A DNA stretch of 53,021 nt from Bacilli bacterium (GCA_051872765.1 JBJEED010000031.1:1-53021), one strand, 5' to 3'; counted from the stretch's first letter, positions 5,879-42,041 are shown. Program-made: numbers and translations. Notes: a model not told the origin generated them from the letters alone.

Positions 5879-7384
5879 GTGAGGTGGTTAATAGTGATTA
5901 AAGAAGAGAATAAAGAACTATTATTTAAAACTATTCTTGCATGTCTACTTTTATTAGCTGTTTTAATATTAGGAATATATTTTATTTTTTCTATTAAGAA
6001 TAAAAATAAAGATATAAATAAAATAAATCCCTCTTCAGAACCACAAATAAAAGAAGATTATAACTATGTTACACTGAATAACTATAAAGTATATGATAAT
6101 AAAGTATCTATAAATGAAAATAATGAAATAGTTTTATATAGTGATGATGAAAATATTTCTCATTATGTTATTGGTAAATATGGGTCAATATTTAGTTCAA
6201 TGTTTCCAGTATATATTATAAATGAAAGAGCTAAATATAAAGATTATGAAGTAATTCATAACGATGAGTATTACTATTATGTTGATACTAAAAACAATAT
6301 AATATCTGAACATTATGATAATATATTTCCAATTAAAAGGTATAATGAGTATACTCATTTAATATTAGAAAATGATAAACAGTTTTATATTCTAACTTTA
6401 GATAATGATGAAATAAAAGAATTAGATAGTAATATTACTAATATTACATATGTTAATGAATTTGATAATGATTATATTAATAATAATTATTTAATTGTTT
6501 CAAATCAAGAGAATAAATATGGATTAATAGATTATCATGGTAACATAATTATAAATTTTAAATATGATTATTTGAAAACTTATATTACTGAAAATAAATT
6601 TATAGCTAAAATTGATAATAAATATGGAATTATAAATGATAAACAAGAAATAATTGTTGATTTTGACAATGATAATATTATTTTTTATAAAGATTTAAAT
6701 AATTATTCTATCTTTATAAAGAATAAAAAAATTGGAATTTATTATGAAGATAAATTGATAATTAATTATAAATTAGACTATTCTTTTACTAATGATAATG
6801 CTTTAAAATACATTGTTAATAATGATACTTTATATTTAAATTTATTTTCTAATAATTACGATGAAATATATAATTACATAATTGATAAAAACGGAATACA
6901 AACTACAAGTAAAAAAGATTATGAACCACTATATAATCAAAATAATGAACTTAAATTTTTCTATACTATAGATGAAGTAAATAATGAAAGTAAAATTACA
7001 TATTATGATTTAGATTATAATAATTTATATACAATTGAAGTTCCATATAAAAATACTTATAATAATTTTGTAATGATAGAATTAATCAAAGATAATATTT
7101 CTTCAATTAAATATACATCAACAAATAATAATATTTATTATATAGATTTGTTTAACTCAAAACAAATAAAAGAAATAGATGCTTTACATGAATATTTTAA
7201 TAATGGATATTCATTTACTTTAAACGATAATAGAGAATTAAAAATATATAAAAATAAAGAATTAATAGGTACTTTTAATGATATTGATAAATATCTTGGA
7301 GATTATTATTTCTTAAGTATAAACTATAACGAAGATGAAGATATTTACAATAGTATTATTTATAATATAGAATTTAAAAAATAA
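5879..7384 (+). CDS. Membrane-anchored WG-repeat-like protein
   Basis: N-terminal TM helix; repeats KYGLIDYHGNIIINFKYD, KYGIINDKQEIIVDFDND, KIGIYYEDKLIINYKLD. Confidence 0.7.
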   Translation: MRWLIVIKEENKELLFKTILACLLLLAVLILGIYFIFSIKNKNKDINKINPSSEPQIKEDYNYVTLNNYKVYDNKVSINENNEIVLYSDDENISHYVIGKYGSIFSSMFPVYIINERAKYKDYEVIHNDEYYYYVDTKNNIISEHYDNIFPIKRYNEYTHLILENDKQFYILTLDNDEIKELDSNITNITYVNEFDNDYINNNYLIVSNQENKYGLIDYHGNIIINFKYDYLKTYITENKFIAKIDNKYGIINDKQEIIVDFDNDNIIFYKDLNNYSIFIKNKKIGIYYEDKLIINYKLDYSFTNDNALKYIVNNDTLYLNLFSNNYDEIYNYIIDKNGIQTTSKKDYEPLYNQNNELKFFYTIDEVNNESKITYYDLDYNNLYTIEVPYKNTYNNFVMIELIKDNISSIKYTSTNNNIYYIDLFNSKQIKEIDALHEYFNNGYSFTLNDNRELKIYKNKELIGTFNDIDKYLGDYYFLSINYNEDEDIYNSIIYNIEFKK

Positions 7385-7410
7385 AATTAGAGATGACCTC
7401 TAATTTTTTT
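7383..7410. terminator. Bidirectional intrinsic terminator
   Basis: AAAATTAGAG-ATGAC-CTCTAATTTT between convergent genes. Confidence 0.8.
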
Positions 7411-7987
7411 ATTCTATTTTAAATTTACTATAGTCTTTCTTTTCTTCTCTACTGGAATACTTGATATATAATTCATATAAGTATTTTTTATTTAATATAA
7501 TTTCTCCTTTATTTTTAAATTCTAAAAATACTTCTTCTAAGTAATCTAATAAATGTGGATTTAAATTATAATATTTTTTATTATCCATAAAGTATTCATA
7601 TACTTTACCATCATTATAATTTTTCTTATTATATGTTTTTGAAGCTGCGATTCGATCACATATCATCTCAAGCATATATTTAAATGGTATTATTGGCATT
7701 TTAACTGGAGCACAATAATCATACCAATATTCAAAATGATGTTTATTTCTACCAAAATGATGTAACCAAGCAGGACTATAACCTATATCTCTTTTACATG
7801 CTGCAAGGGGACTATATTTTCCATTTGATTTTTTATAATACTTAACTGATTCTTTTATTTCTTCGTAGGAAAATTTTGATAAATCATGCATTATTCCCCT
7901 AAATGGTATACCAACTTTAACACATAATTTAAATACTTCCCATTTATGTTTATTTACTGTAGCTAAATGTTTAAAAAAATATTTCAT
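7409..7987 (-). CDS. DUF5662-like HD-type metal-binding protein
   Basis: HKWEV, HDLSKF, AWLHHFGRNKHHFEYW, EMICDRIAAS. Confidence 0.75.
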   Translation of the reverse strand: MKYFFKHLATVNKHKWEVFKLCVKVGIPFRGIMHDLSKFSYEEIKESVKYYKKSNGKYSPLAACKRDIGYSPAWLHHFGRNKHHFEYWYDYCAPVKMPIIPFKYMLEMICDRIAASKTYNKKNYNDGKVYEYFMDNKKYYNLNPHLLDYLEEVFLEFKNKGEIILNKKYLYELYIKYSSREEKKDYSKFKIE

Positions 7988-8017
7988 AATTCCTCCACAT
8001 ACAAAATATCAATATTT

Positions 8018-8242
8018 CTATTGATATTTTTGCATTTGTTTCATTAATTGATTAACTTGTTTTTGACTTGGGTTTCTACCCATTCCTCTCATTAAAGTCT
8101 TAATCATTTCCTCACTTACAGGTGGATTATCTTTTAATTGTTTTTGAAATAGTTTTTTTGCTATTAAAAATCCTACAACTACACCAATAATTAATCCAAT
8201 GACAATATATAATATATCCATTAACATATAAAGTACCTCCAT
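8018..8242 (-). CDS. yneF: YneF family (UPF0154) small membrane protein
   Basis: TM helix then LKDNPPVSEEMIK..MGRNPSQKQVNQ. Confidence 0.9.
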   Translation of the reverse strand: MEVLYMLMDILYIVIGLIIGVVVGFLIAKKLFQKQLKDNPPVSEEMIKTLMRGMGRNPSQKQVNQLMKQMQKYQ

Positions 8243-8292
8243 ATAAATTGTAACATATAAAATATTTAAATAAAATATATTTTAAAAATTAT

Positions 8293-9714
8293 TTAATACT
8301 GAATACCCCAAACTACTTCATGTTTAGCTTTTTTACCACAAACTATACAAGTTTCAGTTTCATACTCTTTAGTTTCTTTTATACATCTTGATTTACAACC
8401 TTTTATTTCTTTCATTTTAGTTTCACAATCTTGACTGCCACACCAATAAGCATTAATAAATCCTGGATTATTTTCAAGAATTTCTCTTACCTCATCTAGA
8501 GTTTTGGCATTAAATGTTCTTTTATTTTTATTTTCAAGAGCTTTATTATACATATCTAATTGCATAACATCTAGTTGTTGCATTATAGTATTAGTAACAT
8601 CATTCAATTTAGTTGTTATTTTTTCAAGAGTATCTCTTCTAACAACAGTAACTTCACTATTATCTAAATCTTTATACCCTATTTCTATTCTAAGTGGTAT
8701 TCCATTTACTTCTGCCTCAGCAAACTTAAATCCAGCTGACTTATCACTATCATCTATTGAAACTGTTATATCCTTACTATTTAAACTTTCTTTAATTTTG
8801 TTGGCTATTGATATTAATTTCTCATCATTCTTAATTGGAATAATTATAACTTGTATAGGTGCGATTTTTGGTGGTAAAACTAGTCCTCTATCATCAGAAT
8901 GAGTCATAATTAATCCACCTATCATTCTTGTACTAACTCCCCAAGATGTTTGATATACATAATCAAATTCATTATTTTTATTAACAAATTTAACATCATA
9001 AGCCTTAGCAAACTTTTGTCCAAAATAATGACTAGTTCCAGACTGTAAACATACTCCATTTTGCATTAATGCCTCAACCGTAAGGGTATACTCAGCACCA
9101 GCGAATTTCTCTTTTTCTGTCTTCCTTCCAGTCAATACTGGTATTGCTAAATATTTTTCAAAAAACTCTTTATATATATCTAGCATTCTATTTGTTTCTG
9201 CTTCAGCCTCTTCTTTAGTACTATGAACAGTATGTCCTTCTTGCCATAAAAATTCTCTACTTCTAAGAAAAGGTCTTGTTTCTTTCTCCCATCTAACAAC
9301 ATTACACCATTGATTATACAAAAGTGGTAAATCTTTATAAGATTTTACTTTCTTTGAATAATAATCTGAAAATAGTGATTCACTCGTTGGTCTAACAGCT
9401 AATCTATCTTCTAATTTATTACTTCCACCATGAGTTACCCAAGCTACTTCAGGAGCAAATCCTGCAACTAATTCACCTTCTTTTTGTAATAGATTTTCTG
9501 GTATAAAAACAGGAAGTGATACATTTTTATGACCCGTTTTTTTAAACATATCATCTAAGATTCTTTGCATACTTTCCCATATAGCATAACCATTAGGTTC
9601 TAAAATAACACATCCCTTAACTGAAGAATAATCAGCAAGTTTAGCAGCTTTTACTACATCAGTATACCACTTTGCAAAATCTTCGCTTCTAGATGTAATT
9701 TTTTCATTTTTCAT
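8293..9714 (-). CDS. proS: Proline--tRNA ligase (short archaeal/eukaryote-like type)
   Basis: RPTSE, RWEKETRPFLRSREFLWQEGH, QTSWGVSTR, C-terminal Zn-binding Cys residues. Confidence 0.97.
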   Translation of the reverse strand: MKNEKITSRSEDFAKWYTDVVKAAKLADYSSVKGCVILEPNGYAIWESMQRILDDMFKKTGHKNVSLPVFIPENLLQKEGELVAGFAPEVAWVTHGGSNKLEDRLAVRPTSESLFSDYYSKKVKSYKDLPLLYNQWCNVVRWEKETRPFLRSREFLWQEGHTVHSTKEEAEAETNRMLDIYKEFFEKYLAIPVLTGRKTEKEKFAGAEYTLTVEALMQNGVCLQSGTSHYFGQKFAKAYDVKFVNKNNEFDYVYQTSWGVSTRMIGGLIMTHSDDRGLVLPPKIAPIQVIIIPIKNDEKLISIANKIKESLNSKDITVSIDDSDKSAGFKFAEAEVNGIPLRIEIGYKDLDNSEVTVVRRDTLEKITTKLNDVTNTIMQQLDVMQLDMYNKALENKNKRTFNAKTLDEVREILENNPGFINAYWCGSQDCETKMKEIKGCKSRCIKETKEYETETCIVCGKKAKHEVVWGIQY

Positions 9715-30650: not shown

Positions 30651-33269
30651 TTACTTATTATTGATTGCGGCTTGTGCAGCAGCTAATCTTGCGATTGGTA
30701 CTCTATATGGACTACATGATACATATGTTAATCCTACTTTATGACAAAATTCAATAGAAGATGGATCTCCTCCATGCTCACCACAAATACCAAGTTTAAT
30801 ATCTGGTCTTACACTCTTACCTTTTTCAACAGCCATTTCGATTAATTGTCCAACACCAACTTGATCAACTCTAGCAAATGGATCACTTTCAAATATTTGT
30901 TTTGAATAATAATCATTTAAGAATTTACCTGCATCATCTCTACTAAATCCATAAGTCATTTGAGTTAAATCATTAGTACCAAAACTAAAGAATTCAGCTT
31001 CTTCTGCAATCTTATCAGCAGTTAAAGCAGCTCTTGGTATTTCAATCATAGTACCTATTTTATAATCTAATTTATAATTTTGTTCTTCAAATACTTTATT
31101 AATTGTATCTACAACTATTTGTTTTACATATGCAAGTTCTTTAACATCTCCAATTAAAGGAATCATAATCTCTGGTTCAACCTTAAGGCCTGTTTTATCT
31201 ACATTAATAGCAGCCTCAATTACAGCTCTAGTTTGCATTTGTGCGATTTCAGGATAAGTAACTGCTAATCTACAACCTCTGTGTCCCATCATAGGATTAA
31301 ATTCGTGTAATGTAGCAATTTTATCCTTTAATTCTTCAAAAGTCATACCTAGTTCTTCTGCTAATGGTTTAATCTCTTCATCAGTATGAGGTACAAATTC
31401 ATGTAGAGGTGGATCTAAGAAACGAATTGTTACTGGATAACCTTTCATTTCTTTATATAATTGCTCAAAATCACCTCTTTGCATTGGTAATAATTTAGCT
31501 AGTGCCTTTTGTCTTTGTTCTGCTGTTTCAGATACTATCATTTGACGAATAGCAAATATTCTTTCTGTTTCAAAAAACATATGTTCAGTTCTACAAAGCC
31601 CTATTCCTTCAGCACCAAACTTAAGTGCTTGAGCAGCATCTTTTGGTGTATCTGCATTTGTTCTAACTTTTAATACTCTAACTTCATCAGCCCAACCCAT
31701 TAATGTTTCAAAATCCCCACTAATTTCTGGTTCAACTGTTGCAACTTTTTCGCCATAAACACATCCTGTAGAACCATCAAGAGAAATATAATCTCCTTCT
31801 TTAAATACTCTACCATCTTTAGTAGTTATTGTTTTATTTTCCTCACTTATCGTTAGTTCACCACATCCAGAAACACAACATCTACCCATACCACGAGCAA
31901 CAACAGCAGCATGTGATGTCATACCACCACGAATAGTAAGAACACCTTTTGCAAGATTCATACCTTCAATATCTTCTGGTGATGTTTCAAGTCTAACTAA
32001 AATAGTTTCTTCTCCTCTATTTGCAGCTTCTGTTACATCTTCTGCTGTAAAATAGATTTTTCCACATCCAGCACCTGGTGATGCTGCAAGCCCTGTTGCA
32101 ATTGGAGTCGCTTTTTTTAAACTTTCAAGATCAAATGTTGGATGCAATAATTGATCTAATTGTTTAGGTTCAACTTTTAATAATGCTTCTTCCTTAGTAA
32201 TCATACCTTCGTTATATAAATCTACAGCAATCTTTAATGCAGCAGCAGCTGTTCTTTTTCCATTACGAGTTTGAAGCATAAATAATTTACCATTTTCAAT
32301 AGTAAATTCCATATCTTGCATATCTTTATAATGTTTTTCTAAGATTTCACAAGTTTTTACAAATTCAGCATATGCATCAGGCATAGTTTCTGCTAAAGTA
32401 TCAATTGTTTTTGGAGTACGAACACCAGCAACAACATCTTCTCCTTGAGCATTCATTAAGTATTCTCCATAAAGTTTCTTTTCTCCAGTAGCTGGATTTC
32501 TTGTAAATGCTACACCAGTACCACAGTCATCTCCTTTATTTCCATATACCATTTCTTGTACATTAACAGCAGTTCCCCAACTAGATGGAATATCATTCAT
32601 TCTTCTATAATAAATAGCTCTATCATTATTCCAACTTCTAAATACAGCAGTAACTGCTTCAATTAATTGTTCTTTTGGATCTTGTGGGAATTCAACACCA
32701 GATTGTTCTTTATAGATTTCTTTAAATTTCATTGCTATTTCATACATATCATTTTCATCTAAATCAGTATCATATGAAACACCTTTTTCTTCTTTAAAGT
32801 TATCTAAAACTCTTTCAAATGAACTTTTTGAATATCCTTTAACAACATCTGCAAACATCATAATAAATCTACGATATGAATCATATGCAAATCTTTTATT
32901 ATTAGTAGCCTTAGCAAAGTTTTCACAAACTTCATCATTAAGTCCTAAATTAAGTACTGTATCCATCATACCTGGCATACTTGCTCTTGCACCACTACGA
33001 ACAGATACTAATAATGGATTATTAAGATCACCCATTTTCTTACCTGTAATCTTTTCTAATTCTGCTAATTTTTCATATATCTCATTTATGATATCTTCAC
33101 TGATCACTTTTCCAGCATCATAATATGCTGTACAAGCTTCAGTAGTTACAGTAAATCCTCTTGGAACAGGTAGTCCAATACTTGTCATTTCTGCAAGATT
33201 AGCTCCTTTACCACCAAGAAGATTTCTCATGTCTTTGTTTCCTTCACTAAACATGTAGACATATTTCAT
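30651..33269 (-). CDS. ppdK: Pyruvate, phosphate dikinase
   Basis: LLGGKGANLAEM, GGMTSHAAVVARG, GLCRTEHMF, FSFGTNDLTQ, GICGEHGG; start ATG 33269 after SD AGGAGG. Confidence 0.98.
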   Translation of the reverse strand: MKYVYMFSEGNKDMRNLLGGKGANLAEMTSIGLPVPRGFTVTTEACTAYYDAGKVISEDIINEIYEKLAELEKITGKKMGDLNNPLLVSVRSGARASMPGMMDTVLNLGLNDEVCENFAKATNNKRFAYDSYRRFIMMFADVVKGYSKSSFERVLDNFKEEKGVSYDTDLDENDMYEIAMKFKEIYKEQSGVEFPQDPKEQLIEAVTAVFRSWNNDRAIYYRRMNDIPSSWGTAVNVQEMVYGNKGDDCGTGVAFTRNPATGEKKLYGEYLMNAQGEDVVAGVRTPKTIDTLAETMPDAYAEFVKTCEILEKHYKDMQDMEFTIENGKLFMLQTRNGKRTAAAALKIAVDLYNEGMITKEEALLKVEPKQLDQLLHPTFDLESLKKATPIATGLAASPGAGCGKIYFTAEDVTEAANRGEETILVRLETSPEDIEGMNLAKGVLTIRGGMTSHAAVVARGMGRCCVSGCGELTISEENKTITTKDGRVFKEGDYISLDGSTGCVYGEKVATVEPEISGDFETLMGWADEVRVLKVRTNADTPKDAAQALKFGAEGIGLCRTEHMFFETERIFAIRQMIVSETAEQRQKALAKLLPMQRGDFEQLYKEMKGYPVTIRFLDPPLHEFVPHTDEEIKPLAEELGMTFEELKDKIATLHEFNPMMGHRGCRLAVTYPEIAQMQTRAVIEAAINVDKTGLKVEPEIMIPLIGDVKELAYVKQIVVDTINKVFEEQNYKLDYKIGTMIEIPRAALTADKIAEEAEFFSFGTNDLTQMTYGFSRDDAGKFLNDYYSKQIFESDPFARVDQVGVGQLIEMAVEKGKSVRPDIKLGICGEHGGDPSSIEFCHKVGLTYVSCSPYRVPIARLAAAQAAINNK

Positions 33270-33412
33270 TTTATCATCCTCCTTAATCACTTTTACTATT
33301 ATATCATAGTAACTCTTTTTTACTAAAGTTTTTTTATTCTTTTTACATCTTTTTACTTAATATAAATAAAAAACATCACTTTCTTTATAAAATGATGTTT
33401 ATCATATTAATA

Positions 33413-34018
33413 TTATTTATTAAATTCAGAATTTTCTAATGTTATATTTAATACTTTTTCCAAATAACACTTTCCACATAGAGATTCATATTCTATTTCA
33501 TTTTCTCCATCAATTGCAACTTGCTCACCACTAGATGTAAATTTACCATTTACTATTCTACCATTAAATTTTGCTCTATGGCCACATCTACATATAGTCA
33601 CGAGTTCCTCTAATACATCTGCTAATTCAAATAATCTTAAACTTCCAGGAAAAGACATAGTCTTAAAATCACTTCTAAGTCCATAACATATTACTGGTAT
33701 ATGTTTTAATTTAGCAAATATAAATAATTCATCTATTTGATCTCTTGTTAAAAACTGTGATTCATCAACAAGAACGCAAACTATATTTTCATCAAGAGTG
33801 TTTAAATATTCAGTAAGTCTTTCATCTTTCTCAACTAAATGATCAACTTCTCTTTCTAAACCTATTCTAGTAACAATTTTATTATCACCTTTAGTATCAA
33901 TACTAGGTTTTAAAATAGCCACTCTCATTCCTCTTTCTTCATAATTATGTGCTACTTGCAATAAAAGTGTTGTCTTACCAGAATTCATCGCACCATATCT
34001 AAAATATAATTTACTCAT
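33413..34018 (-). CDS. tdk: Thymidine kinase
   Basis: GAMNSGKT, VDESQF, YGLRSDF, C-terminal Zn-binding Cys pairs. Confidence 0.96.
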   Translation of the reverse strand: MSKLYFRYGAMNSGKTTLLLQVAHNYEERGMRVAILKPSIDTKGDNKIVTRIGLEREVDHLVEKDERLTEYLNTLDENIVCVLVDESQFLTRDQIDELFIFAKLKHIPVICYGLRSDFKTMSFPGSLRLFELADVLEELVTICRCGHRAKFNGRIVNGKFTSSGEQVAIDGENEIEYESLCGKCYLEKVLNITLENSEFNK

Positions 34019-34904
34019 CTCTATCCCTCCTTGGAAAGCAATTATAATAAACTTCTTTTAATCTTTCATTAGTGACATGTGTATATATTTCAGTCGCTTT
34101 TAATGAAGAGTGTCCAAGTAATTCCTGAACTACTTTTATATCGCAACCATTATTTAACATATCCGTTGCAAATGTATGCCTTAAAACATGAGGTGTTACA
34201 TGTGTTTTAATAGATAACCTATCCATTATTTTATCAATAATATATCTGACACCTCTTACCGTTATTTTACCACCCTTATTATTAATAAATAAATAGTTTT
34301 CACTATTTTTTTTATGAGTTTCTAAATATTTCTTTAATATTTCTTCTGCATAATCTCCATAATATACAATTCTTTCTTTATTACCTTTTCCACATACAAC
34401 TATTCTTTTATTATTAAAATCTATATCATTTATTTTTATATTTACTAGTTCACTAATTCTAACTCCTGTAGCATAAAGCATCTCTATTATTAACCTATCT
34501 CTTATACCATCTTTTCCATTAGATGATTCATTTATTATTTCAAGTAAATCATTATAATATACAAACTTAGGTAGTTTTTTTTCTACTTTAGGATAAGAAA
34601 TTTTACTTAAAGGATAGTCTTTCTTATCCATATATCCGTTATTATATAAATATTTATAAAATGATTTAAAAGTACTTATCCTTCTTCTAATAGATGTTGA
34701 ACTCTCTTTTTTCAAATTTAAAAATTCTAAATAATCTTTTATATCTTCATAATTAACTTTATCTAAATCTTTCTTTAAAAAAATATATAAACTATATAAA
34801 TCATTTATATAGGATATTAAAGTATTATCTGAATAATTTTTAGATATTATATAATTTTTAAATTCTTTAATTAAAGTCATTTTTTCAAAATCATTCTTTT
34901 CCAT
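34011..34904 (-). CDS. xerC: XerC/XerD-type tyrosine recombinase
   Basis: YATGVRISEL, GKGNKER, HVLRHTFAT, QELLGH, IYTHV; overlaps tdk. Confidence 0.8.
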   Translation of the reverse strand: MEKNDFEKMTLIKEFKNYIISKNYSDNTLISYINDLYSLYIFLKKDLDKVNYEDIKDYLEFLNLKKESSTSIRRRISTFKSFYKYLYNNGYMDKKDYPLSKISYPKVEKKLPKFVYYNDLLEIINESSNGKDGIRDRLIIEMLYATGVRISELVNIKINDIDFNNKRIVVCGKGNKERIVYYGDYAEEILKKYLETHKKNSENYLFINNKGGKITVRGVRYIIDKIMDRLSIKTHVTPHVLRHTFATDMLNNGCDIKVVQELLGHSSLKATEIYTHVTNERLKEVYYNCFPRRDRDE

Positions 34905-34937
34905 AATTAAATTATAATATATTTTTTTAAAATATGA

Positions 34938-34959
34938 AAGACACTAATAAAAGTGTCTT
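34938..34959. terminator. Hairpin upstream of xerC (probable terminator)
   Basis: AAGACACT-AATAAA-AGTGTCTT. Confidence 0.55.
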
Positions 34960-35205
34960 ATTTATATAAACACACATGTGTGTGATTCAAAAAGTAGTAT
35001 TTGATGGAAATATGTATTTATGTATTATCAATTTCAATATATTCTTAAAAAACGATTTTAGAAGAATGATTATTTAGAAATCATTATATACGACAGATTT
35101 TAATTATTAGAAATAGTTTTTACTATTTCTAATATATATTATTAAATATTTTAATAATTGTTTATTTGTTTCATCACTATTTTTAAAATTATTAATTAAA
35201 TTAAT

Positions 35206-35700
35206 TTATTTTTCCCAACAGCGTAATCTATATCTTTTTGAAAAAGTATATCCTCTTTTTTCATTTTCCTCAATACTAGTTTTTTGAGGAATACCAAAAT
35301 ACCCAATTTTATGATACATTTCACCATCAGAATTTACTCTTGTAAAATGAAATTCACTTTCTTTTAAGAATAATAAAACATCCCAAGATTTACACCAATA
35401 ATTTCCTAATGTTCTATTATTTTGTCTTTCATCTGTTTCAGTTATTTTATATCCTAATTTTAAAACTTTAAAGTCTAAAATTATTCTATCCTCAATTTTG
35501 AGTTTAACAATTTCACTAACAGGTATATTTAATACATTAGCTGCAATTATACCAGGCTGAAATGCATTTTTACAAATATCATTTTCCGGAATATCGAGTC
35601 CCAAAGCAAAAGCATAACAATTAGTTTCAAAATCATTCTCCCAAAATTCTTCTCTTAAACTAATTAATTCTCTTATTTCCTTAATTGGCATATTTAACAT
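35206..35700 (-). CDS. Hypothetical protein with NCYAFA..QPG..H..HK motifs
   Basis: SD AGGAGG; TGATATAAT upstream. Confidence 0.75.
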   Translation of the reverse strand: MLNMPIKEIRELISLREEFWENDFETNCYAFALGLDIPENDICKNAFQPGIIAANVLNIPVSEIVKLKIEDRIILDFKVLKLGYKITETDERQNNRTLGNYWCKSWDVLLFLKESEFHFTRVNSDGEMYHKIGYFGIPQKTSIEENEKRGYTFSKRYRLRCWEK

Positions 35701-35731
35701 CGAGATTCCTCCTTTTTGCTATTTATTATAT

Positions 35732-35850
35732 CACATTAATTCATATTCTATTATAGCAATTCTATCATCTAAAAAATATTTTATTATTATTTATTTTATT
35801 CTTGCATATTAATATATCATATGATAATTATCTCCTATTTTAAATCTACC
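35732..35850 (-). pseudogene. Decayed remnant of the 3' end of a YhcG-like gene
   Basis: Translates IIKYFLDDRIAIIEYELM* versus VIEYCSDERIAVREYELV* of the 37842 gene; KIGDNY versus RIGNNY further upstream. Confidence 0.75.
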
Positions 35851-36084
35851 TTGATTTAATTTAATTCCAATACTTACATCTCATCTGTTGATAATCATTT
35901 AGTCTAGAAATAATATCAATATAAAAGTTTATTACTAAGTTTTTTAAAATTGCCATGCTAGCCAAAAACAATTGTATTCTGTTTATCAAATATCTTTTTA
36001 TATATTTGGTATTAAAGTTATTATCAATATCAAGAAATTATTATCTCTTGTAAGTATAAACTACTTGTTATTTAAATTAATAAA

Positions 36085-36567
36085 TCAAATGTTCATTTTA
36101 GGCAAGGAGTCAGCCCAATCATTTAAATTTTTAAATATTTCAGATAATTCATGATCTAATTCTATTAAATTTTTAAATTCGACAGTATCTCTATTTTTTA
36201 ATACCGAAATAAAACAAACCAAATGATTTTTCGATAATTTAAAACCTTTCGGTATATTTTTAAATTGATACTCATTTTCAAAAATTATAGATAAACATTG
36301 ATAATCAACTTTATCTATTGCTTTCAACAAATTATTTTTATCAGTATCATCAGTTATTATATTTACTTCTTTTAATTCTTCTATTAAATTTGAAATAATA
36401 AATAATTTAGAAAGTATTATTTCGACACAAGTTTCTACAAGATAACCCTTTTTTTGTAATTTTGAAATAACTTGATTTAAATTTTTTTCAATTCCTATAT
36501 AATCTTTTTCATTTAAAATATTATTTGTTTTTAAATCTATACAACTATGCGTACTAATCATAATCAA
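36085..36567 (-). CDS. Hypothetical protein (cargo)
   Basis: 160-aa ORF with SD GAGGAG and TGATATAAT upstream. Confidence 0.7.
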   Translation of the reverse strand: MIMISTHSCIDLKTNNILNEKDYIGIEKNLNQVISKLQKKGYLVETCVEIILSKLFIISNLIEELKEVNIITDDTDKNNLLKAIDKVDYQCLSIIFENEYQFKNIPKGFKLSKNHLVCFISVLKNRDTVEFKNLIELDHELSEIFKNLNDWADSLPKMNI

Positions 36568-36646
36568 TAACTCCTCTCACATTGATTATATCACTATTTA
36601 CAAAAATATGATTTTTTTAAAGGGCCAATGATTTATTTTTTCATGC

Positions 36647-37279
36647 TCACAGTGGGCATGTCTTAATTTTATATCCATTCTTATTTAATTTAATTTCTAT
36701 AGTTCCATCTAAATCCGTACGATAAATATTACTATCTTTTAGTATATCTAACACACTATCTTTAGGATGACCGTACCTATTATTTTTTCCAACACCAATT
36801 AAACAATATTTAGGATTAATACTATTTATAAATTTTTCACTTGATGATGTATTTGATCCATGATGTCCTACTTTTAATACATCTATATTTTGTAAATCAT
36901 ATTTTTCTATTATATCTTCTTCTACTTCTAATCCTGCATCTCCCATAAACAAGAACTTATGATTATCTAATTCAGTATAAATAACACTTGAATTATCATT
37001 TTCATTACCGTAATCTTCGTTATTTAAAAACTTTAATTTGTTATTATTAATATTTAGTTCTTTAATGCATGAATAATATGGTATTTTCTTTTTATCTAAT
37101 ACTTTGATAAGTTTTTGTTCAAGTTCATTAAATTCACCACAATTAAATATCACATTTTCAACTTTAAAATTATTTACCAAATTAATAGCCTCACCCATAT
37201 GATCATAATCTCCATGTGGTGATTGCCAATTAGTAAGTCGAATAAAATCCTTTATTTTTGAGAAAAAAGGAATCACCAT
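36647..37279 (-). pseudogene. Partial duplicate of the comEC 3' end (metallo-beta-lactamase domain)
   Basis: HGDYDHMGEA..KVGHHGS..NRYGHP nearly identical to ComEC; 5' portion of comEC absent. Confidence 0.9.
36786..37216. repeat. Direct repeat copy A (~430 bp; partner 38877-39307)
   Basis: Offset 2091 bp; two mismatches seen by eye. Confidence 0.95.
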
Positions 37280-37300
37280 TATAAGTAGATTCTTTATTAA

Positions 37301-37813
37301 TTATTTTTTTAATACTTTATTTTTATTTAGTAATGGTTGATATATATGAGAGATAAAATCATCTTGTAACGTTAAACCTGTATTTAAATTTTTACTATAT
37401 TTTCCATTTCCTGCTGGTGAAAAACATATACCATAAGTTTTATGTGGTCTATCCAACATTTCATCAAGTTTTTTTGTACACCAAATTTTAAAACCAAAAC
37501 TATTTCTTTCAATGTTCAAACAACTTACAGAAGCAATAGACCATTCATCATCCGGATTTTAATAACAATCACTATGCCAAATTAATTTATTACTATTTTT
37601 ATAATTTGGTAAAATCTCATCATTAAAATCATAATAATTATTCATAAAACTATCTAGCAAATGATATAACTCCATTTCTTCAGTAACATTAATTACAGCA
37701 TCAGAATAAAAATACCATATGCATTCATCAGAAGAATGATCTATATACATTATTTCATTATTTTTATCATCATAGAAATGTATAGTTTTATTGCTTATAA
37801 CTTTTTTCATCAT
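37301..37813 (-). pseudogene. Cargo gene split by one in-frame TAA (37559-37561)
   Basis: The 84-aa and 72-aa ORFs share a frame: ..SDCY*NPDDEWSIASVSCLNIER.. Confidence 0.85.
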
Positions 37814-37841
37814 GTCACCTCATTGATTTCTATTTATTATA

Positions 37842-38750
37842 TCATACTAACTCATATTCTCTAACTGCAATTCTTTCATCCGAACAATATTCTATTACAA
37901 ATTTATTATCTTGTTTACAAATAATTATTCCAATAGTTTTATCTTGATTAAACTTTCTTAAATTTTTATCTATGTAATTCATATAAATTTGTATTTGACC
38001 AATATGTTCTTTCTTAAGTTCAGTTACTTTTAATTCAACAACTACAAAGCAATTATATTCATAATTGAATAATAGTAAGTCTATATAATTATAATTATTT
38101 CCTATTCTTATTTTATATTCACTTCCAACAAAACAAAATGAATTACCAAGTTCATTCATAAAAGATTCAATATCTTCTAAAATTAATTTTTGTAAAATCT
38201 TCTCAGATACAATTTCATAATTACTACTATTTTTAATTATTATTGGATTTTTAACATATTCAATTATATTGGATTCTTGTTTATCAGTTAATTTATTTTT
38301 TGTCTCTTCTGGTAATCTTTCATATTCATTTAGTTTTATTTTTTCTCTTAATTGCCTTACAGATAGATTTTGAATAATTGATATATTTATATAATAATTA
38401 ATTTTATTAAAATCATCATTCCATATCAATTCACAATAATGGGAATATGACAATTTGTCCGACAGCGTCGGACATTTTGAGAAAACATCATAAAATCTTC
38501 TAAAATATCTTAATCTAGATTGAGTATAACCTTTTCCTAAATCACTTGTTAATTTTTTTGAATATTCTTTAATTATACCTTCACCATAACATTTTCCTGC
38601 TTCGCTTAACATTTTCCCAACATTATAATAAGTATTTAGATCACTTTTATTAATTGAATAATTTTTAATTTTTCTATTTATTTCATTATTTATTAATTCA
38701 TTCTTAATTTCATTATAATAATTCATTTTACTACTTTCTATGGTGGACAA
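37842..38750 (-). CDS. YhcG/DUF1016 family PD-(D/E)XK nuclease-like protein
   Basis: LSYSHY, NLSVRQL, ELGNSFCFVGSEY, IDLLLFN..VVVELK, GQIQIYMNY; start probably MNYYNE. Confidence 0.92.
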   Translation of the reverse strand: MSTIESSKMNYYNEIKNELINNEINRKIKNYSINKSDLNTYYNVGKMLSEAGKCYGEGIIKEYSKKLTSDLGKGYTQSRLRYFRRFYDVFSKCPTLSDKLSYSHYCELIWNDDFNKINYYINISIIQNLSVRQLREKIKLNEYERLPEETKNKLTDKQESNIIEYVKNPIIIKNSSNYEIVSEKILQKLILEDIESFMNELGNSFCFVGSEYKIRIGNNYNYIDLLLFNYEYNCFVVVELKVTELKKEHIGQIQIYMNYIDKNLRKFNQDKTIGIIICKQDNKFVIEYCSDERIAVREYELV

Positions 38751-40834
38751 TTATTTATTTGTAATTTATTATTCTTAATCTTAAACATAATACTTCCATC
38801 TTGATCTGTTCTATATATTTTGCTATTTTTTAAATTATCTAACACACTATCATTTGGATGACCATATCTATTATTCTTTCCAACACCAATTAAACAATAT
38901 TTAGGATTAATATTATTTATAAATTTTTCACTTGATGATGTATTTGATCCATGATGTCCTACTTTTAATACATCTATATTTTGTAAATCATATTTTTCTA
39001 TTATATCTTCTTCTACTTCTAATCCTGCATCTCCCATAAACAAGAACTTATGATTATCTAATTCAGTATAAATAACACTTGAATTATCATTTTCATTACC
39101 GTAATCTTCGTTATTTAAAAACTTTAATTTGTTATTATTAATATTTAGTTCTTTAATGCATGAATAATATGGTATTTTCTTTTTATCTAATACTTTGATA
39201 AGTTTTTGTTCAAGTTCATTAAATTCACCACAATTAAATATCACATTTTCAACTTTAAAATTATTTACCAAATTAATAGCCTCACCCATATGATCATAGT
39301 CTCCATGCGTTAATAATAAATAATTTATCTTTTTAAGACCAATACTTTTAAAAAAAGGAATCATGCTAGATGTCATCAAATTAAATTTATTATTTTGAAG
39401 AGCCCACTTTTCTTTATAGTAATCAATTTTACCACCTGTATCAATTAGAATACTTTTCTTATTTTTAGTAATTATAAGTATACTATCACCTTGATTAACA
39501 TCAATAAAATATATGTATGTATTATTATTAAAACCAGTTTTAATATATAAGTATACTATAAAAACTATAAATGGTAAGATAATTATTTTTTTATTCTTAA
39601 TGATTAAAATAAATAATGTATAATATATTATTATCTCTAATATATTCATTCTTGCAAAATATAAATATAGATTAAATATATTTGAACTAATTTTTGATAT
39701 ATTCTCCATAAAAGTTATAAGAATAGTTAATATTTCATTTAAAAAAGGAAAAATGATATTAAGAATAGCAAACGGAAATACTATATAGCTTACATAAGGA
39801 ATAAAAAATAAATTATTAAAAAAACATAATATATTTATTTCATAAGACATATTTATTATGAGCGGTATACTAGATAAAAAAGATATTAAACTTATAATTA
39901 ATATACTTTTTATTTTTCCTTTAATTTTATAATTTTCATTAAATAATATAATAAAAAATGTAATAGTGAAAGATAATATAAATCCTATATTAAATATATA
40001 ATTAGGATTTATAAATGTAATAATAATAAAAGTTAAATATAAAATATTCCTAGATTTAATATTTAAATAATATATTTCATTTATATTTATAAGTATAAAA
40101 AATATAGTTGCTCTTAAAATTGAAGGCGTAAAAGATGCAATAAAAGAAAAAATAATTAATAATACAGATGTTAAAAAAAGAGATATTTTTTTAGATATTT
40201 TAAATTTATTTAAAATAAATATTATAATAGATGATAACATAGAGACATGAAGTCCAGATAATGAAAATAAATGTGTAACACCATTAATTTTATAATTATT
40301 ATACAATTCATTATCTATATAATTTGTTCTACCAAGTATTAAAGCATATAAATAATCATTATTTTTTATATTAGAAATTCTTTTATAAATTAAATTTTTT
40401 AATTTAATAAAGATATTTCTATTTTTACTTTTTAATAATATAGTATTTATGTTAAGTATATATTTAATTTCTTTTCTTTCTAAATATTTTTTATAATTAA
40501 AAGTGTTAAAAATAGTATTATTACTTGGTATTTTAAGACTACCTTCAATTTCTAATTTATCGCCAATTTCATAATTAAACTCTTCTTTTTCTTTTTTATT
40601 ATTAAAATAATATGTTCCAACTAAATCTTCATAAAAATTTAGTGCTAATTTATCTCCATCTATTTTAATATCACTAATCGTTAAAATAAATTTATTTTCA
40701 TTAATATTATATTTACTTTTTAGTTCATAGTTATAAACATAAATAATTATATAAATGATATTTATTATTAATAAAAAATAATATAAGCAATCATATTGTA
40801 ATATTGTTCTTAATCTTTTCAAAAGTATTTTCAC
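38738..40834 (-). CDS. comEC: DNA uptake channel ComEC
   Basis: GVTHLFSLSGLHVS, PSILRA, DVNQGDS, IDTGG, THGDYDH, KVGHHGS, YGHP. Confidence 0.96.
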   Translation of the reverse strand: MKILLKRLRTILQYDCLYYFLLIINIIYIIIYVYNYELKSKYNINENKFILTISDIKIDGDKLALNFYEDLVGTYYFNNKKEKEEFNYEIGDKLEIEGSLKIPSNNTIFNTFNYKKYLERKEIKYILNINTILLKSKNRNIFIKLKNLIYKRISNIKNNDYLYALILGRTNYIDNELYNNYKINGVTHLFSLSGLHVSMLSSIIIFILNKFKISKKISLFLTSVLLIIFSFIASFTPSILRATIFFILININEIYYLNIKSRNILYLTFIIITFINPNYIFNIGFILSFTITFFIILFNENYKIKGKIKSILIISLISFLSSIPLIINMSYEINILCFFNNLFFIPYVSYIVFPFAILNIIFPFLNEILTILITFMENISKISSNIFNLYLYFARMNILEIIIYYTLFILIIKNKKIIILPFIVFIVYLYIKTGFNNNTYIYFIDVNQGDSILIITKNKKSILIDTGGKIDYYKEKWALQNNKFNLMTSSMIPFFKSIGLKKINYLLLTHGDYDHMGEAINLVNNFKVENVIFNCGEFNELEQKLIKVLDKKKIPYYSCIKELNINNNKLKFLNNEDYGNENDNSSVIYTELDNHKFLFMGDAGLEVEEDIIEKYDLQNIDVLKVGHHGSNTSSSEKFINNINPKYCLIGVGKNNRYGHPNDSVLDNLKNSKIYRTDQDGSIMFKIKNNKLQINNCPP
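38877..39307. repeat. Direct repeat copy B (within comEC; partner 36786-37216)
   Basis: Near-identical sequence. Confidence 0.95.
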
Positions 40835-41513
40835 TTATTCCACTAACATTTAAAATATCATCTATACTTTTAAAATAACCTATTGAATTTCTATATTCAA
40901 TAATAGCAATAGCTTTAGATTCTCCAATGCCATTTAATTCCATTAATTCTTCTTTACTAGCAGTATTAATATTAATTAATTTACTTTCATCACTACCATT
41001 ATTAATAGTTGAATCACTTTGTTCTTGATTAGTATTATTTTCTAATATGCAAGCATCATTTTTTACTTCTTCACATATACAAGGCGTCTCAACAATAATA
41101 GTTTTTGTTTCATTAGCTTTTTCTATTTCTTCATTTGAATAAATAACAATAACATCACCATCTTTTAACTCTTTTGATAAATTGATAAATCTAGTATTTG
41201 CATTTTTTTTAAGACCACCAGAAGATTTAATCGCATCTATCACTCTTTGTCCTTCATATAATTCATATACACCTGGTTTATTAACACTACCTTTAACATC
41301 AACAATTATTTTTTTACTTTCAATTATATCTTCTTGTGTCTCTACTAATACATCATCTTCTTCATATATATTCTTATCTTTAACATTATTATCTATATTA
41401 AGATATAAATAAAATAAGTAAATAAATCCTAATAAATAAAATAATATTATTATTGTAGGAAATATAATTTTTCTATAATCATAATCTTTTAAAATTGATA
41501 AAATTTTTTTCAT
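40791..41513 (-). CDS. comEA: Competence DNA receptor ComEA
   Basis: TM helix, SLBB domain VDVKGSVNKPGVY, HhH ININTAS..LNGIGESKA. Confidence 0.96.
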   Translation of the reverse strand: MKKILSILKDYDYRKIIFPTIIILFYLLGFIYLFYLYLNIDNNVKDKNIYEEDDVLVETQEDIIESKKIIVDVKGSVNKPGVYELYEGQRVIDAIKSSGGLKKNANTRFINLSKELKDGDVIVIYSNEEIEKANETKTIIVETPCICEEVKNDACILENNTNQEQSDSTINNGSDESKLININTASKEELMELNGIGESKAIAIIEYRNSIGYFKSIDDILNVSGISENTFEKIKNNITI

Positions 41514-41615
41514 ATATTACTCCTTTCATATATATAATTAGAAATTAATATTTAAAACACTACTTTTTTCTAAAATAAAATCAAGTAGAATATCTACCTG
41601 ATCTTATAAATATAG

Positions 41616-42041
41616 TTATTTTAATAATCTTTTTTGAAATATTGGCTCTGACTTATCCATTGTCACTACAAAATATTCTTTTGTATTATAATCATAACCA
41701 ATACTCATTTCATTTGATAAACTTTGAAATGCTTTATGAAATGAATAATCAATTCCAAGTCTTGCAAATATGAAATATAATATACTAATACTTCCTTTTT
41801 GTGTATTTGGTCCTGTAAATATTTCTGCTTTTAATACAGGATTTTCTTTATCAGAAAGTATTTCATACAAATTATCTAATGCAATATATTTATCATAAGC
41901 TTCAATATTAATAAGAACACTACTATCTTTTCTGTGAAGTAATAATGCAATATATGAATTTATATCTCTTATATATCCAAGAGAATCTTCTTTATTTAAT
42001 ATTTTATATTGATCAATTCCAACTAAATACTTATCTTTCAT
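41616..42041 (-). CDS. Hypothetical protein
   Basis: ORF; likely start MKDKY after AGGGGG. Confidence 0.6.
   Translation of the reverse strand: MKDKYLVGIDQYKILNKEDSLGYIRDINSYIALLLHRKDSSVLINIEAYDKYIALDNLYEILSDKENPVLKAEIFTGPNTQKGSISILYFIFARLGIDYSFHKAFQSLSNEMSIGYDYNTKEYFVVTMDKSEPIFQKRLLK

Follow-up and report, generated by a model that had tools for sequence, protein, structure and literature searches.

Displaced comEC 3' ends at putative phage-integrase junctions behind an intact comEC gene in gut Bacilli

The window analyzed here, a stretch of 53,021 nucleotides from a Bacilli bacterium (GCA_051872765.1, JBJEED010000031.1:1-53021), harbors an intact competence gene comEC that is followed by a second, displaced copy of its own 3' end. 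This downstream fragment probably represents the old comEC 3' end, located at an attR-type junction of a phage large serine recombinase (LSR); the cassette in front of it would have supplied a replacement end that keeps comEC whole, and it would move by means of an integrase provided in trans. The locus is a variant on two themes that are both already known, namely the serine-integrase phages that target comEC and the islands that regenerate the end of their target gene. Its source is a metagenome-assembled genome (MAG) of 1.44 Mb in 94 contigs, with 77.8% completeness and 4.8% contamination.

A previous reading of the window from its sequence alone had described a near-identical duplication of the comEC 3' end, and the alignment bears this out in all particulars. 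Positions 39307-38877 and 37216-36786, at an offset of 2091 bases, agree at 429 of 431 bases, and the two mismatches (39299/37208 and 38913/36822) lie 8 and 37 bases from the ends of the block. The 5' edge of the repeat falls, as proposed, on the His codon of the HGDYDH motif, starting at the C of CAT, and upstream of that codon the two comEC copies are unrelated. The tails beyond the block were said to be diverged and both open; in effect 97 of the last 139 bases before the stops (69.8%) and 29 of the 46 tail residues are the same, and both frames are open. Between the copies are found the expected YhcG-like nuclease gene (DUF1016_N + YhcG_C) and, as cargo, two small open reading frames (ORFs), and a search of the window proteins with Pfam, from which all domain assignments were taken, yielded no recombinase domain between 37217 and 39307. 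The genome contains these two comEC 3' copies and no others. In the congener G013, the equivalent block is 94.8% identical over 425 bases. The first copy belongs to an unbroken comEC frame of 698 residues that retains all its domains, and the gene interruption characteristic of prophages in competence genes is thus not seen in the window. As for the second copy, its 210-residue ORF is devoid of the first ~65 residues of the metallo-β-lactamase (MBL) domain, with Lactamase_B matching at profile positions 51-189 only, and its TIGR00361 score is 87 bits for a cut-off of 190. That it might be a working ComEC paralogue was considered and rejected on account of the incomplete MBL fold, the decay of its relatives, and the fact that displaced copies do not form a clade of their own.

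Every comEC fragment examined in the congeners begins at the H codon of HGDxDH, immediately after one of two leader sequences, type I (...GTATGCATAAACGTATGTCACCA/CA, where the slash denotes the junction) or type II (...TTCGACTTACTAATTGGCAATCACCA/CA). The window has a single type II leader, at 37242-37217, with no occurrence expected by chance. It is also present in two IMG/VR contigs that have no homologue of any window protein. In one of them, L043 (IMGVR_UViG_3300028242_000173), it forms the left half of an inverted-repeat site, ATTCGACTTACT-15 nt-CA-15 nt-AGTAAGTCGAAT, which directly follows the stop codon of a gene for a 473-residue LSR (Resolvase + Recombinase + Zn_ribbon_recom), itself adjoining a CI-type repressor gene. 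In this type II attP of 56 bp, P agrees with P', taken as its reverse complement, at 17 of 28 positions about the CA, the distal 12-13 bases being identical and at equal distance from the center. The half-sites of the type I attP, of 48 bp, match at 19 of 25 positions and are likewise centered on CA, while the halves of the window's own attB match at 7 of 25 only. A size of 40-50 bp is given for LSR sites in one report (10.1101/2025.05.02.651858). The same viral contig encodes a GmrSD_N+HNH nuclease and an EcoRI-type adenine methyltransferase at 6384-8748, ~1.4-3.7 kb from attP, which look like defense cargo at the phage end.

A junction of the opposite kind was found in the congener G049, whose LSR is 63% identical to that of L043. 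In its contig C35 (L064/L052), AGGAGGCATCGGTTTATGCATAC, the type I P' arm, lies between the stop codon of the LSR gene and the inverted comEC 5' part; comEC at this phage junction reads ...KINYFIIT/QGGIGLCIRII before a stop codon and is thus truncated. This junction is the attL of a comEC-truncating prophage. The contigs C35, C2, and C32 (L048), which hold between them the phage end and the 5' and 3' parts of comEC, all stop at the att site, as expected from a mixture of lysogen and non-lysogen, and G049 is apparently such a live mixture; it also carries two type II scars downstream. The reciprocal attL for type II was not found in the genus, and the full type I attP has no match in IMG/VR. 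The type I P' arm was absent from the 401 genomes of an order-wide sample, a weak negative given that this sample includes only two genus genomes besides the window's own. Neither a P' arm nor the type III arm described below is present in the window. G003, G049, G013, and other congeners also possess up to 12 genes for serine recombinases of 600-650 residues, some of them clustered, which are 27-31% identical to the comEC-phage integrase and belong to other elements.

Since the leaders match a viral attP arm next to an LSR gene and fit with the attL of G049, they are P arms, and the boundary between leader and comEC 3' end is an attR-type junction. An Rfam scan of 34000-41600 with E up to 5 returned three sub-threshold snoRNA-like matches only, and the leader is therefore not a known RNA. 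The 5' edge of the repeat is then the crossover dinucleotide CA of phage LSRs rather than an arbitrary homology boundary. The sequence-only reading had taken the comEC 3' end for a mere homology anchor, a view that does not hold with an att crossover at the edge and an attP arm before the downstream copy. Nor does the contrast that it drew with elements that disrupt competence genes, as the prophage junction of the congener splits comEC at the matching site; together with the attP arm, this junction indicates that the window structure descends from comEC-disrupting phages.

A comparison of relatives for varying comEC 3' copies and cargo, which had been suggested at the outset, was performed, and it showed that the copy number differs (four in G046, two in the window) and that the neighboring genes vary. 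In the genus, of which 50 species genomes were sampled, the frame comEA-comEC-variable stretch-xerC/D-like-tdk-ppdk is conserved, and the distance between comEC and the xer gene is ~0.3 kb at the near-empty site of G006 and 1.4-3.7 kb in the other genomes. With the 189-residue comEC 3' part as query, a match was obtained in 22 of 24 congeners, and 8 of 25 genus genomes, the window's own included, have two to three matches within 4 kb on one contig. The type I arm is present in 7 and the type II arm in 10 of the 50 genomes, amounting to 16 distinct genomes, and reversed-pattern controls for both arms gave none; this figure of 16 in 50 is the only unbiased frequency. GTDB genomes yielded 30 type I loci (29 distinct), in which as many as five comEC remnants follow one another, and metagenome contigs at least 126 type II loci. 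Among the matches listed, the comEC 5' part lies upstream and on the same strand in all 25 type II contexts with at least 6 kb of upstream sequence, 1.3-8.1 kb from the arm (median 2.3 kb), and none of 69 type II contexts in metagenome contigs has a close LSR homologue. No recombinase was found in the inter-copy regions of the relatives either. Megablast of window positions 33001-42000 against the metagenome loci gave no match at 88% identity or above.

A plain lysogen should read comEC 5' part-attL-prophage-attR-comEC 3' end, and arms located behind an intact comEC are therefore unusual. Yet of the 58 distinct working comEC genes counted, 47 are followed by an arm at a distance of no more than 9 kb. 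In these 47, the first junction behind comEC is P/comEC' (the arm followed by a comEC 3' end) in 40 cases and P/P' in four cases according to a script, to which L085 was added as P/P' by eye. Three of the first-junction P/P' cases are hybrids of a type II P and a type I P' arm, and two of these, L148 and L111, have a type I P/comEC' junction further down. Overall, the P/P' junctions are type I with type I in L084, type II with type II in L143, and type II P with type I P' in L111, L127, L132, L148, and L176; each is followed by a 21-residue yhcG stub, a promoter, one gene, and an arm. Altogether, a widespread family of integrase-less cassettes, always with an intact comEC upstream, occupies in tandem the interval from comEC to xerC/D-tdk in uncultured Bacilli of gut and rumen. 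No description of displaced comEC ends or of gene-restoring cassettes at an LSR site was found in open-access papers and preprints; one paper deals with a comEC gene interrupted by a transposon.

The units have a regular anatomy. They start with the CA and 570 bp of comEC 3' end, followed by a gene that abuts or overlaps the comEC stop and codes for a YhcG-like or a Bro-N/DinD-like protein. A promoter-like site, TGnTATAAT, is found over the stop codon of that gene and is conserved after both yhcG and Bro-N genes in relatives; it precedes one variable accessory gene (WDGH, HD, PrcB_C, SHOCT-membrane, C39-like, or of no family), and the unit ends with a hairpin and then the arm. Among relatives, a hairpin and T-run lie before the leader in most cases, as judged by eye only; a terminator scan detected no canonical hairpin before the arm of the window. 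The 2091-bp unit of the window thus consists of a new comEC 3' end, the yhcG-like gene, a split small gene, and the phage arm. Like the elements that regenerate the end of their target, it shows a 3'-end copy, an intact gene, and a displaced old end, but it encodes no integrase. The best PADLOC match of its YhcG-like gene is the candidate defense family PDC-S02 (E = 2.5e-64). The two small ORFs, orf84 and orf72, have no family match in Pfam, NCBIfam, or PADLOC. They align with a single 173-residue ORF of G003 (L039:144-665, - strand), which is also located directly before a type II arm, and the window gene seems to have been split by a stop or a frameshift. Further downstream, a stub of the yhcG 3' end with TGnTATAAT at 35786-35716, before orf164, is 82% identical to 37897-37827. 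Positions 35881-35836, with a weak resemblance (75-78% over 44-45 AT-rich bases), may be the stub of a third comEC tail, and both stubs may be the remains of an older unit.

A second junction occurs further down in comEC. In other genomes, stubs of the comEC tail start at residue ~139-142 of the 3' part, and a type III leader, ...ATATGTACTAACTACTCAATACCAGT/TGGMAARAATAAT, precedes them in eight cases from six loci (L068, L072, L073 twice, L079, L082 twice, and L095). This junction is located 425 bases after the CA, in the codons for GVG/KNNRYGHP, and the stubs represent the last ~46 codons. The equivalent window position is ~38883/38882. The block of the window ends 6 bases past it, with its first mismatch at offset 431, and that of G013 ends at offset 425. 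The type III arm has no match in IMG/VR, and no integrase was found for it; its recurrence suggests that the leader marks a second attachment site, at which the tail only would be swapped.

The comEC 3' ends also bear traces of exchange. Compared with the window, G046 is 97-100% identical downstream of ~36680 and 94-100% in comEA and the comEC 5' part, and its identity falls to ~80% between 39325 and 39299, bracketing the CA, with 14 mismatches in 39700-39308 versus 39 in 39299-39100; yhcG is 57-77% and orf84 83-91% identical. The second copy of the window is a mosaic: its first 431 bases equal those of copy 1, a stretch of ~100 bases resembles neither copy 1 nor G046, and the final ~35 bases belong with the downstream flank that the window has in common with G046. 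The working 3' end of G011 and a displaced copy of G045 are 98.8% identical over 501 bases from the H codon, the 5' parts being 72% identical. In a quick maximum-likelihood tree of 59 open copies, with mostly low supports, working and displaced ends are interleaved (22 label changes, compared with 20.7 on average after shuffling). Pairwise identity among 28 working genes has a median of 39% over the 450 residues before the site and of 73% over the 189 residues after it, and 17 of 378 pairs combine a 3' part at 85% or above with a 5' part at 60% or below; the conservation step is located at comEC residue 510, inside the MBL domain. Of 108 comEC-3'-like matches, 43 are partial, three near-full displaced copies have early stops, and many are cut down to stubs. 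The mosaic copies and the breakpoints inside copies imply that recombination within comEC 3' copies does happen, and homologous recombination between copies evidently shrinks, grows, and reshuffles the arrays and swaps tails as a secondary process. The notion that a single crossover exchanges a 2091-bp unit while comEC is kept and its tail swapped is therefore partly vindicated, insofar as the unit is recurrent, comEC intact, the end swapped, and arrays reshuffled; such a crossover cannot be the origin of the junction, which sits at a phage att crossover.

Starting from what is directly documented, i.e., the junction anatomy, the phage origin of the arm, the prophage junction of the congener, the recurrence of arrays behind intact comEC, and the recombination of copies, the anatomy can be interpreted with good confidence as phage-integrase scars plus replacement cassettes; we infer from it that the cassettes move as units by phage integrases supplied in trans. 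An LSR integrase alone recombines attP with attB, and the product sites require a second protein, according to two reports (10.1101/2025.05.02.651858; PMC12286644). Two routes can be envisaged, both of which would use only canonical LSR reactions. In each, the LSR would cut at the CA of the His codon (HGDxDH) in comEC, where a plain prophage would truncate the gene. In the first route, a phage with an internal P/comEC 3' site would integrate at attB and later leave through attL and its inner site, depositing CA-comEC 3' end-cargo-arm before the old end. This would give a direct P/comEC' junction, as found in the window and in the 40 of 47 arm-bearing genes mentioned above. In the second route, a circular cassette with an attR-type site would recombine with the attL of a lysogen, with the help of the integrase and a directionality factor; comEC would be repaired, and a P/P' junction would be left before a trapped element that can no longer be excised and decays. 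The type I P/comEC' junction found downstream of the hybrid junction in L148 and L111 is predicted by this attL x attR reaction. By either route, cassettes would pile up between comEC and xerC/D-tdk, the newest next to comEC, and RecA-type recombination and gene conversion between the 3' ends would then homogenize, contract, and reshuffle the array. Homologous recombination or gene conversion after insertion would account for both the near-identical 431-bp block and the mosaic nature of copy 2. One may go further, albeit tentatively, and regard the cassettes as integrase-less satellites of comEC-targeting phages that use half a nuclease domain as att site, being inserted at attL or dropped off by a departing phage, with the type III site swapping the last 46 codons in like manner; this extension is possible but rather doubtful.

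Several observations weigh against the proposed replacement-cassette origin. No cassette circle and no cassette inside a phage genome was seen; relatives of the comEC 3' fragment were not found in IMG/VR by a search that detects close relatives only, nor was a phage with an inner site, and the type I arm is absent from IMG/VR. A close homologue of the comEC-phage integrase was not found in the window's MAG, with its 77.8% completeness, the best match being 28% identical. The identity step at 39307 with respect to G046 could result from homologous crossovers in the 25-base invariant stretch that codes for HGDYDHMG, or, equally well, from a donor copy that is homologous from the CA onwards. The conservation step at residue 510 is partly explained by domain constraint, although this hardly accounts for pairs such as 90.5% versus 39.0%. 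Most loci were found by searching for the arms, and the locus counts are thus biased towards arrays. Finally, the model leaves the first origin of the cassette without explanation. Four public sequencing runs gave short contigs only, and their listed joints, with sides of ~20 bases, have no bearing on a 2091-bp deletion or circle.

Passive scars would provide another origin for the same architecture. A prophage would split comEC and later lose its bulk, and comEC would be mended by deletions or by homologous replacement from a non-lysogen ("chromosomal curing"), leaving the last phage genes, the P arm, and the old 3' end in place; the cassettes would then not be mobile, and their spread would be vertical or by exchange through flanking homology. 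The P arm with its variable gene does resemble the right end of a phage (promoter, gene, terminator), the units that begin with P' and a 21-residue yhcG stub have the look of larger elements reduced by deletion, the decay of many displaced copies (43 of 108 partial, three with early stops) fits, and the breakpoints inside copies are what homologous exchange would leave. In addition, transformation is reported to delete integrated elements in one source (10.1101/2024.08.13.607808). However, a lysogen has no working comEC and so is not mendable by transformation, and if the replacement by homology were clean, the arm and the old end would be lost with it. To keep both, an illegitimate joint would be needed each time, whereas the same tight architecture recurs with at least eight unrelated neighbor genes, the distance of the first unit is narrow (mostly 1-3 kb), and a large prophage remnant lies between the copies in none of the 25 loci with 6 kb upstream, among the matches listed. 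An origin of the arrays as passive scars is thus considered unlikely.

Pure homology anchoring would dispense with any site-specific step, a 2091-bp circle entering or leaving by a single RecA crossover. It finds favorable ground in the 570 bases of homology that flank the unit, including the 431-base near-identical block, in the lack of a recombinase in the unit, in the difference in copy number between close relatives (G046 and the window), and in breakpoints that vary, for instance ~36680 and +501. It fails to explain why every fragment starts at the same CA, why each fragment has a conserved phage attP arm in front of it in genera that share ~40% identity in the comEC 5' part, and why P/P' junctions exist inside arrays. 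Arrays can persist and be rearranged by this process, but it is unable to generate the junction, and as sole mechanism it is contradicted by the viral arm and the symmetry of attP, which makes it quite improbable.

That the structure might be an assembly artefact deserves consideration because the source is a MAG, contaminated at 4.8%: a single path through a collapsed repeat node might combine two strain variants, or a chromosome and a 2.1-kb circle. The 385 interior bases of the block are exactly identical, with mismatches near the block ends, and could represent such a collapsed node, in which case the true identity may be lower; moreover, many congener contigs break at the comEC 3' end, and an assembly graph alone cannot separate an integrated unit from a circle. 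On the other hand, the order of parts recurs in numerous independent records, which include contigs of 187-553 kb, and copies elsewhere are too diverged to collapse, those of G016 and G002 being ~50% versus 70% identical to the query. In G046, comEC-yhcG-orf84 on one contig and comEC'-orf160-orf164-xer on another form unique paths, and a 790-base contig from an unrelated pig-gut run (X4, record 26) bridges 37076-37863 at ~93% identity, spanning the yhcG end, orf84, orf72, the arm, and comEC'. An artefact is accordingly very improbable.

Two further candidates were rejected, namely an integron-like or Xer-driven array, since the recombinase of the locus is XerC/D-like, is encoded twice per genome, and is found at the near-empty G006 site as well, and an analogy with orphan toxin modules, since the tails are ordinary alleles that are also found in working genes. 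The tyrosine recombinase in question (34011-34904, 1.7 kb downstream) has XerC (303 bits) or XerD as best match and scores 132.9 with TIGR02249, for a cut-off of 265; Xer-like genes number two per genome in all four genomes searched, and it looks like a housekeeping XerC/D. It overlaps the tdk start by 8 bases (34011-34018), and the pair is conserved across the genus in an operon-like arrangement that couples a chromosome-dimer recombinase with thymidine kinase.

The features of the locus are compiled in Table 1; the genes of the region, all on the - strand, are in the order comEA, comEC, yhcG, orf84, orf72, 210-residue ORF, orf160, orf164, tyrosine recombinase, tdk, and ppdk.

Table 1. Features of the comEC locus, in window coordinates
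Feature	Position	Strand	Remarks
comEA (SLBB + HHH_3)	40791..41513	-	Conserved left flank of the locus
comEC, intact, 698 residues (DUF4131 + Competence + Lactamase_B)	38738..40834	-	TIGR00361 237 bits, above cut-off
att1 crossover, CA of the His codon (HGDYDH) in the working gene	39306..39307	-	Putative attB-type junction, comEC 5' part/comEC 3' part
431-base block, copy 1	38877..39307	-	From att1 to 6 bases beyond the type III junction position of other genomes
comEC tail A (GSIMFKIKNNKL type)	38738..38876	-	Overlaps the yhcG start
YhcG-like PD-(D/E)XK nuclease gene (DUF1016_N + YhcG_C)	37842..38750	-	Overlaps the comEC stop
Promoter-like site, TGnTATAAT over the yhcG stop codon	37836..37863	-	Faces the next gene
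orf84 (37559-37813) and orf72 (37301-37519)	37301..37813	-	Split version of the 173-residue G003 gene
Type II P arm (half of a phage attP), then CA at 37216-37215	37217..37242	-	Forms an attR-type junction with the displaced copy
Displaced comEC 3' end: block 37216-36786 and tail B 36785-36647	36647..37216	-	Mosaic copy
210-residue ORF of the displaced copy	36647..37279	-	Starts upstream, in non-comEC sequence
orf160, cargo, no known family	36085..36567	-	95.6% identical in G046
Remnants of older unit(s), putative	35716..35881	-	yhcG 3' stub and possible third comEC tail stub
orf164, cargo, no known family	35206..35700	-	Upstream of the tyrosine recombinase gene
XerC/D-like tyrosine recombinase gene (34011-34904), overlapping tdk (33413-34018)	33413..34904	-	Conserved right flank

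Serine-recombinase prophages inside comEC at a fixed dinucleotide are known from streptococci, in the case of Phi1207.3/Tn1207.3 and Phi10394.4, according to one study (PMC4260502); other gene-splitting LSR prophages include SPbeta in spsM and A118. The system described here shares with the streptococcal comEC phages the coding target, the specific dinucleotide, the serine recombinase, and the splitting of the gene in a true lysogen (here G049). It differs from them by the intact comEC of the window, the 2.1-kb integrase-less unit with a replacement 3' end, and the arrays; compared by dinucleotide alone, the crossover is CA, in the HGDxDH codons, versus GA in streptococci, and the hosts are uncultured small-genome gut Bacilli. 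Islands in tRNA and tmRNA genes bring along a 3'-end copy of the target gene, which thereby survives, and the SCCmec-type composite arrays at rlmH include recombinase-less pseudo-SCC units. As in those systems, the element regenerates the gene end, old ends are pushed downstream, and units are in tandem, some without recombinase and the newest presumably next to the gene. Unlike in tRNA islands, the regenerated piece consists of 570 bp that code for half a catalytic domain, not of a few bases or a tRNA end, and unlike in both types the gene-side junction is indistinguishable from the native gene; furthermore, the cassette site (P arm/gene) is of the attR type, whose recombination with attB is barred by canonical LSR rules. 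The units resemble integron cassettes in being small, promoter-poor, recombinase-less, variable in cargo, and arrayed next to a conserved recombinase gene, but the neighbor is XerC/D-like rather than IntI, there are no attC hairpins, and the site that recurs consists of an LSR att arm together with a gene end. The full gene followed by 5'-truncated copies with diverged tails, small ORFs in between, and end swapping by homologous exchange are reminiscent of cdiA/rhs orphan modules; however, comEC is not a toxin gene, and the truncation point is a phage att crossover.

For annotation, "partial comEC" ORFs behind comEC in MAGs of gut Bacilli are to be viewed as att scars and not as paralogues. 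As comEC is far more alike between genera after the att site than before it (73% versus 39%), its 3' third (residues 510-698) is a poor marker for phylogeny in these Bacilli. Mobile elements are thought to be in conflict with transformation and to protect themselves against deletion by the host through insertion into competence genes. The locus represents the other side of that conflict, a common and compact way to keep comEC whole at a phage cut site with defense-type cargo added. If phage integrases mobilize the cassettes, these would constitute a new type of minimal hitch-hiker, with a functional half of a gene as recognition site, as well as natural serine-integrase reactions on mixed sites, which would be of interest for genome engineering. 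Should they be satellites as tentatively considered above, a cassette would repair comEC and deliver a defense or accessory gene, the attL route would lock the prophage in to decay, and the last 189 codons of comEC would behave as mobile DNA across genera in a family of gut Bacilli.

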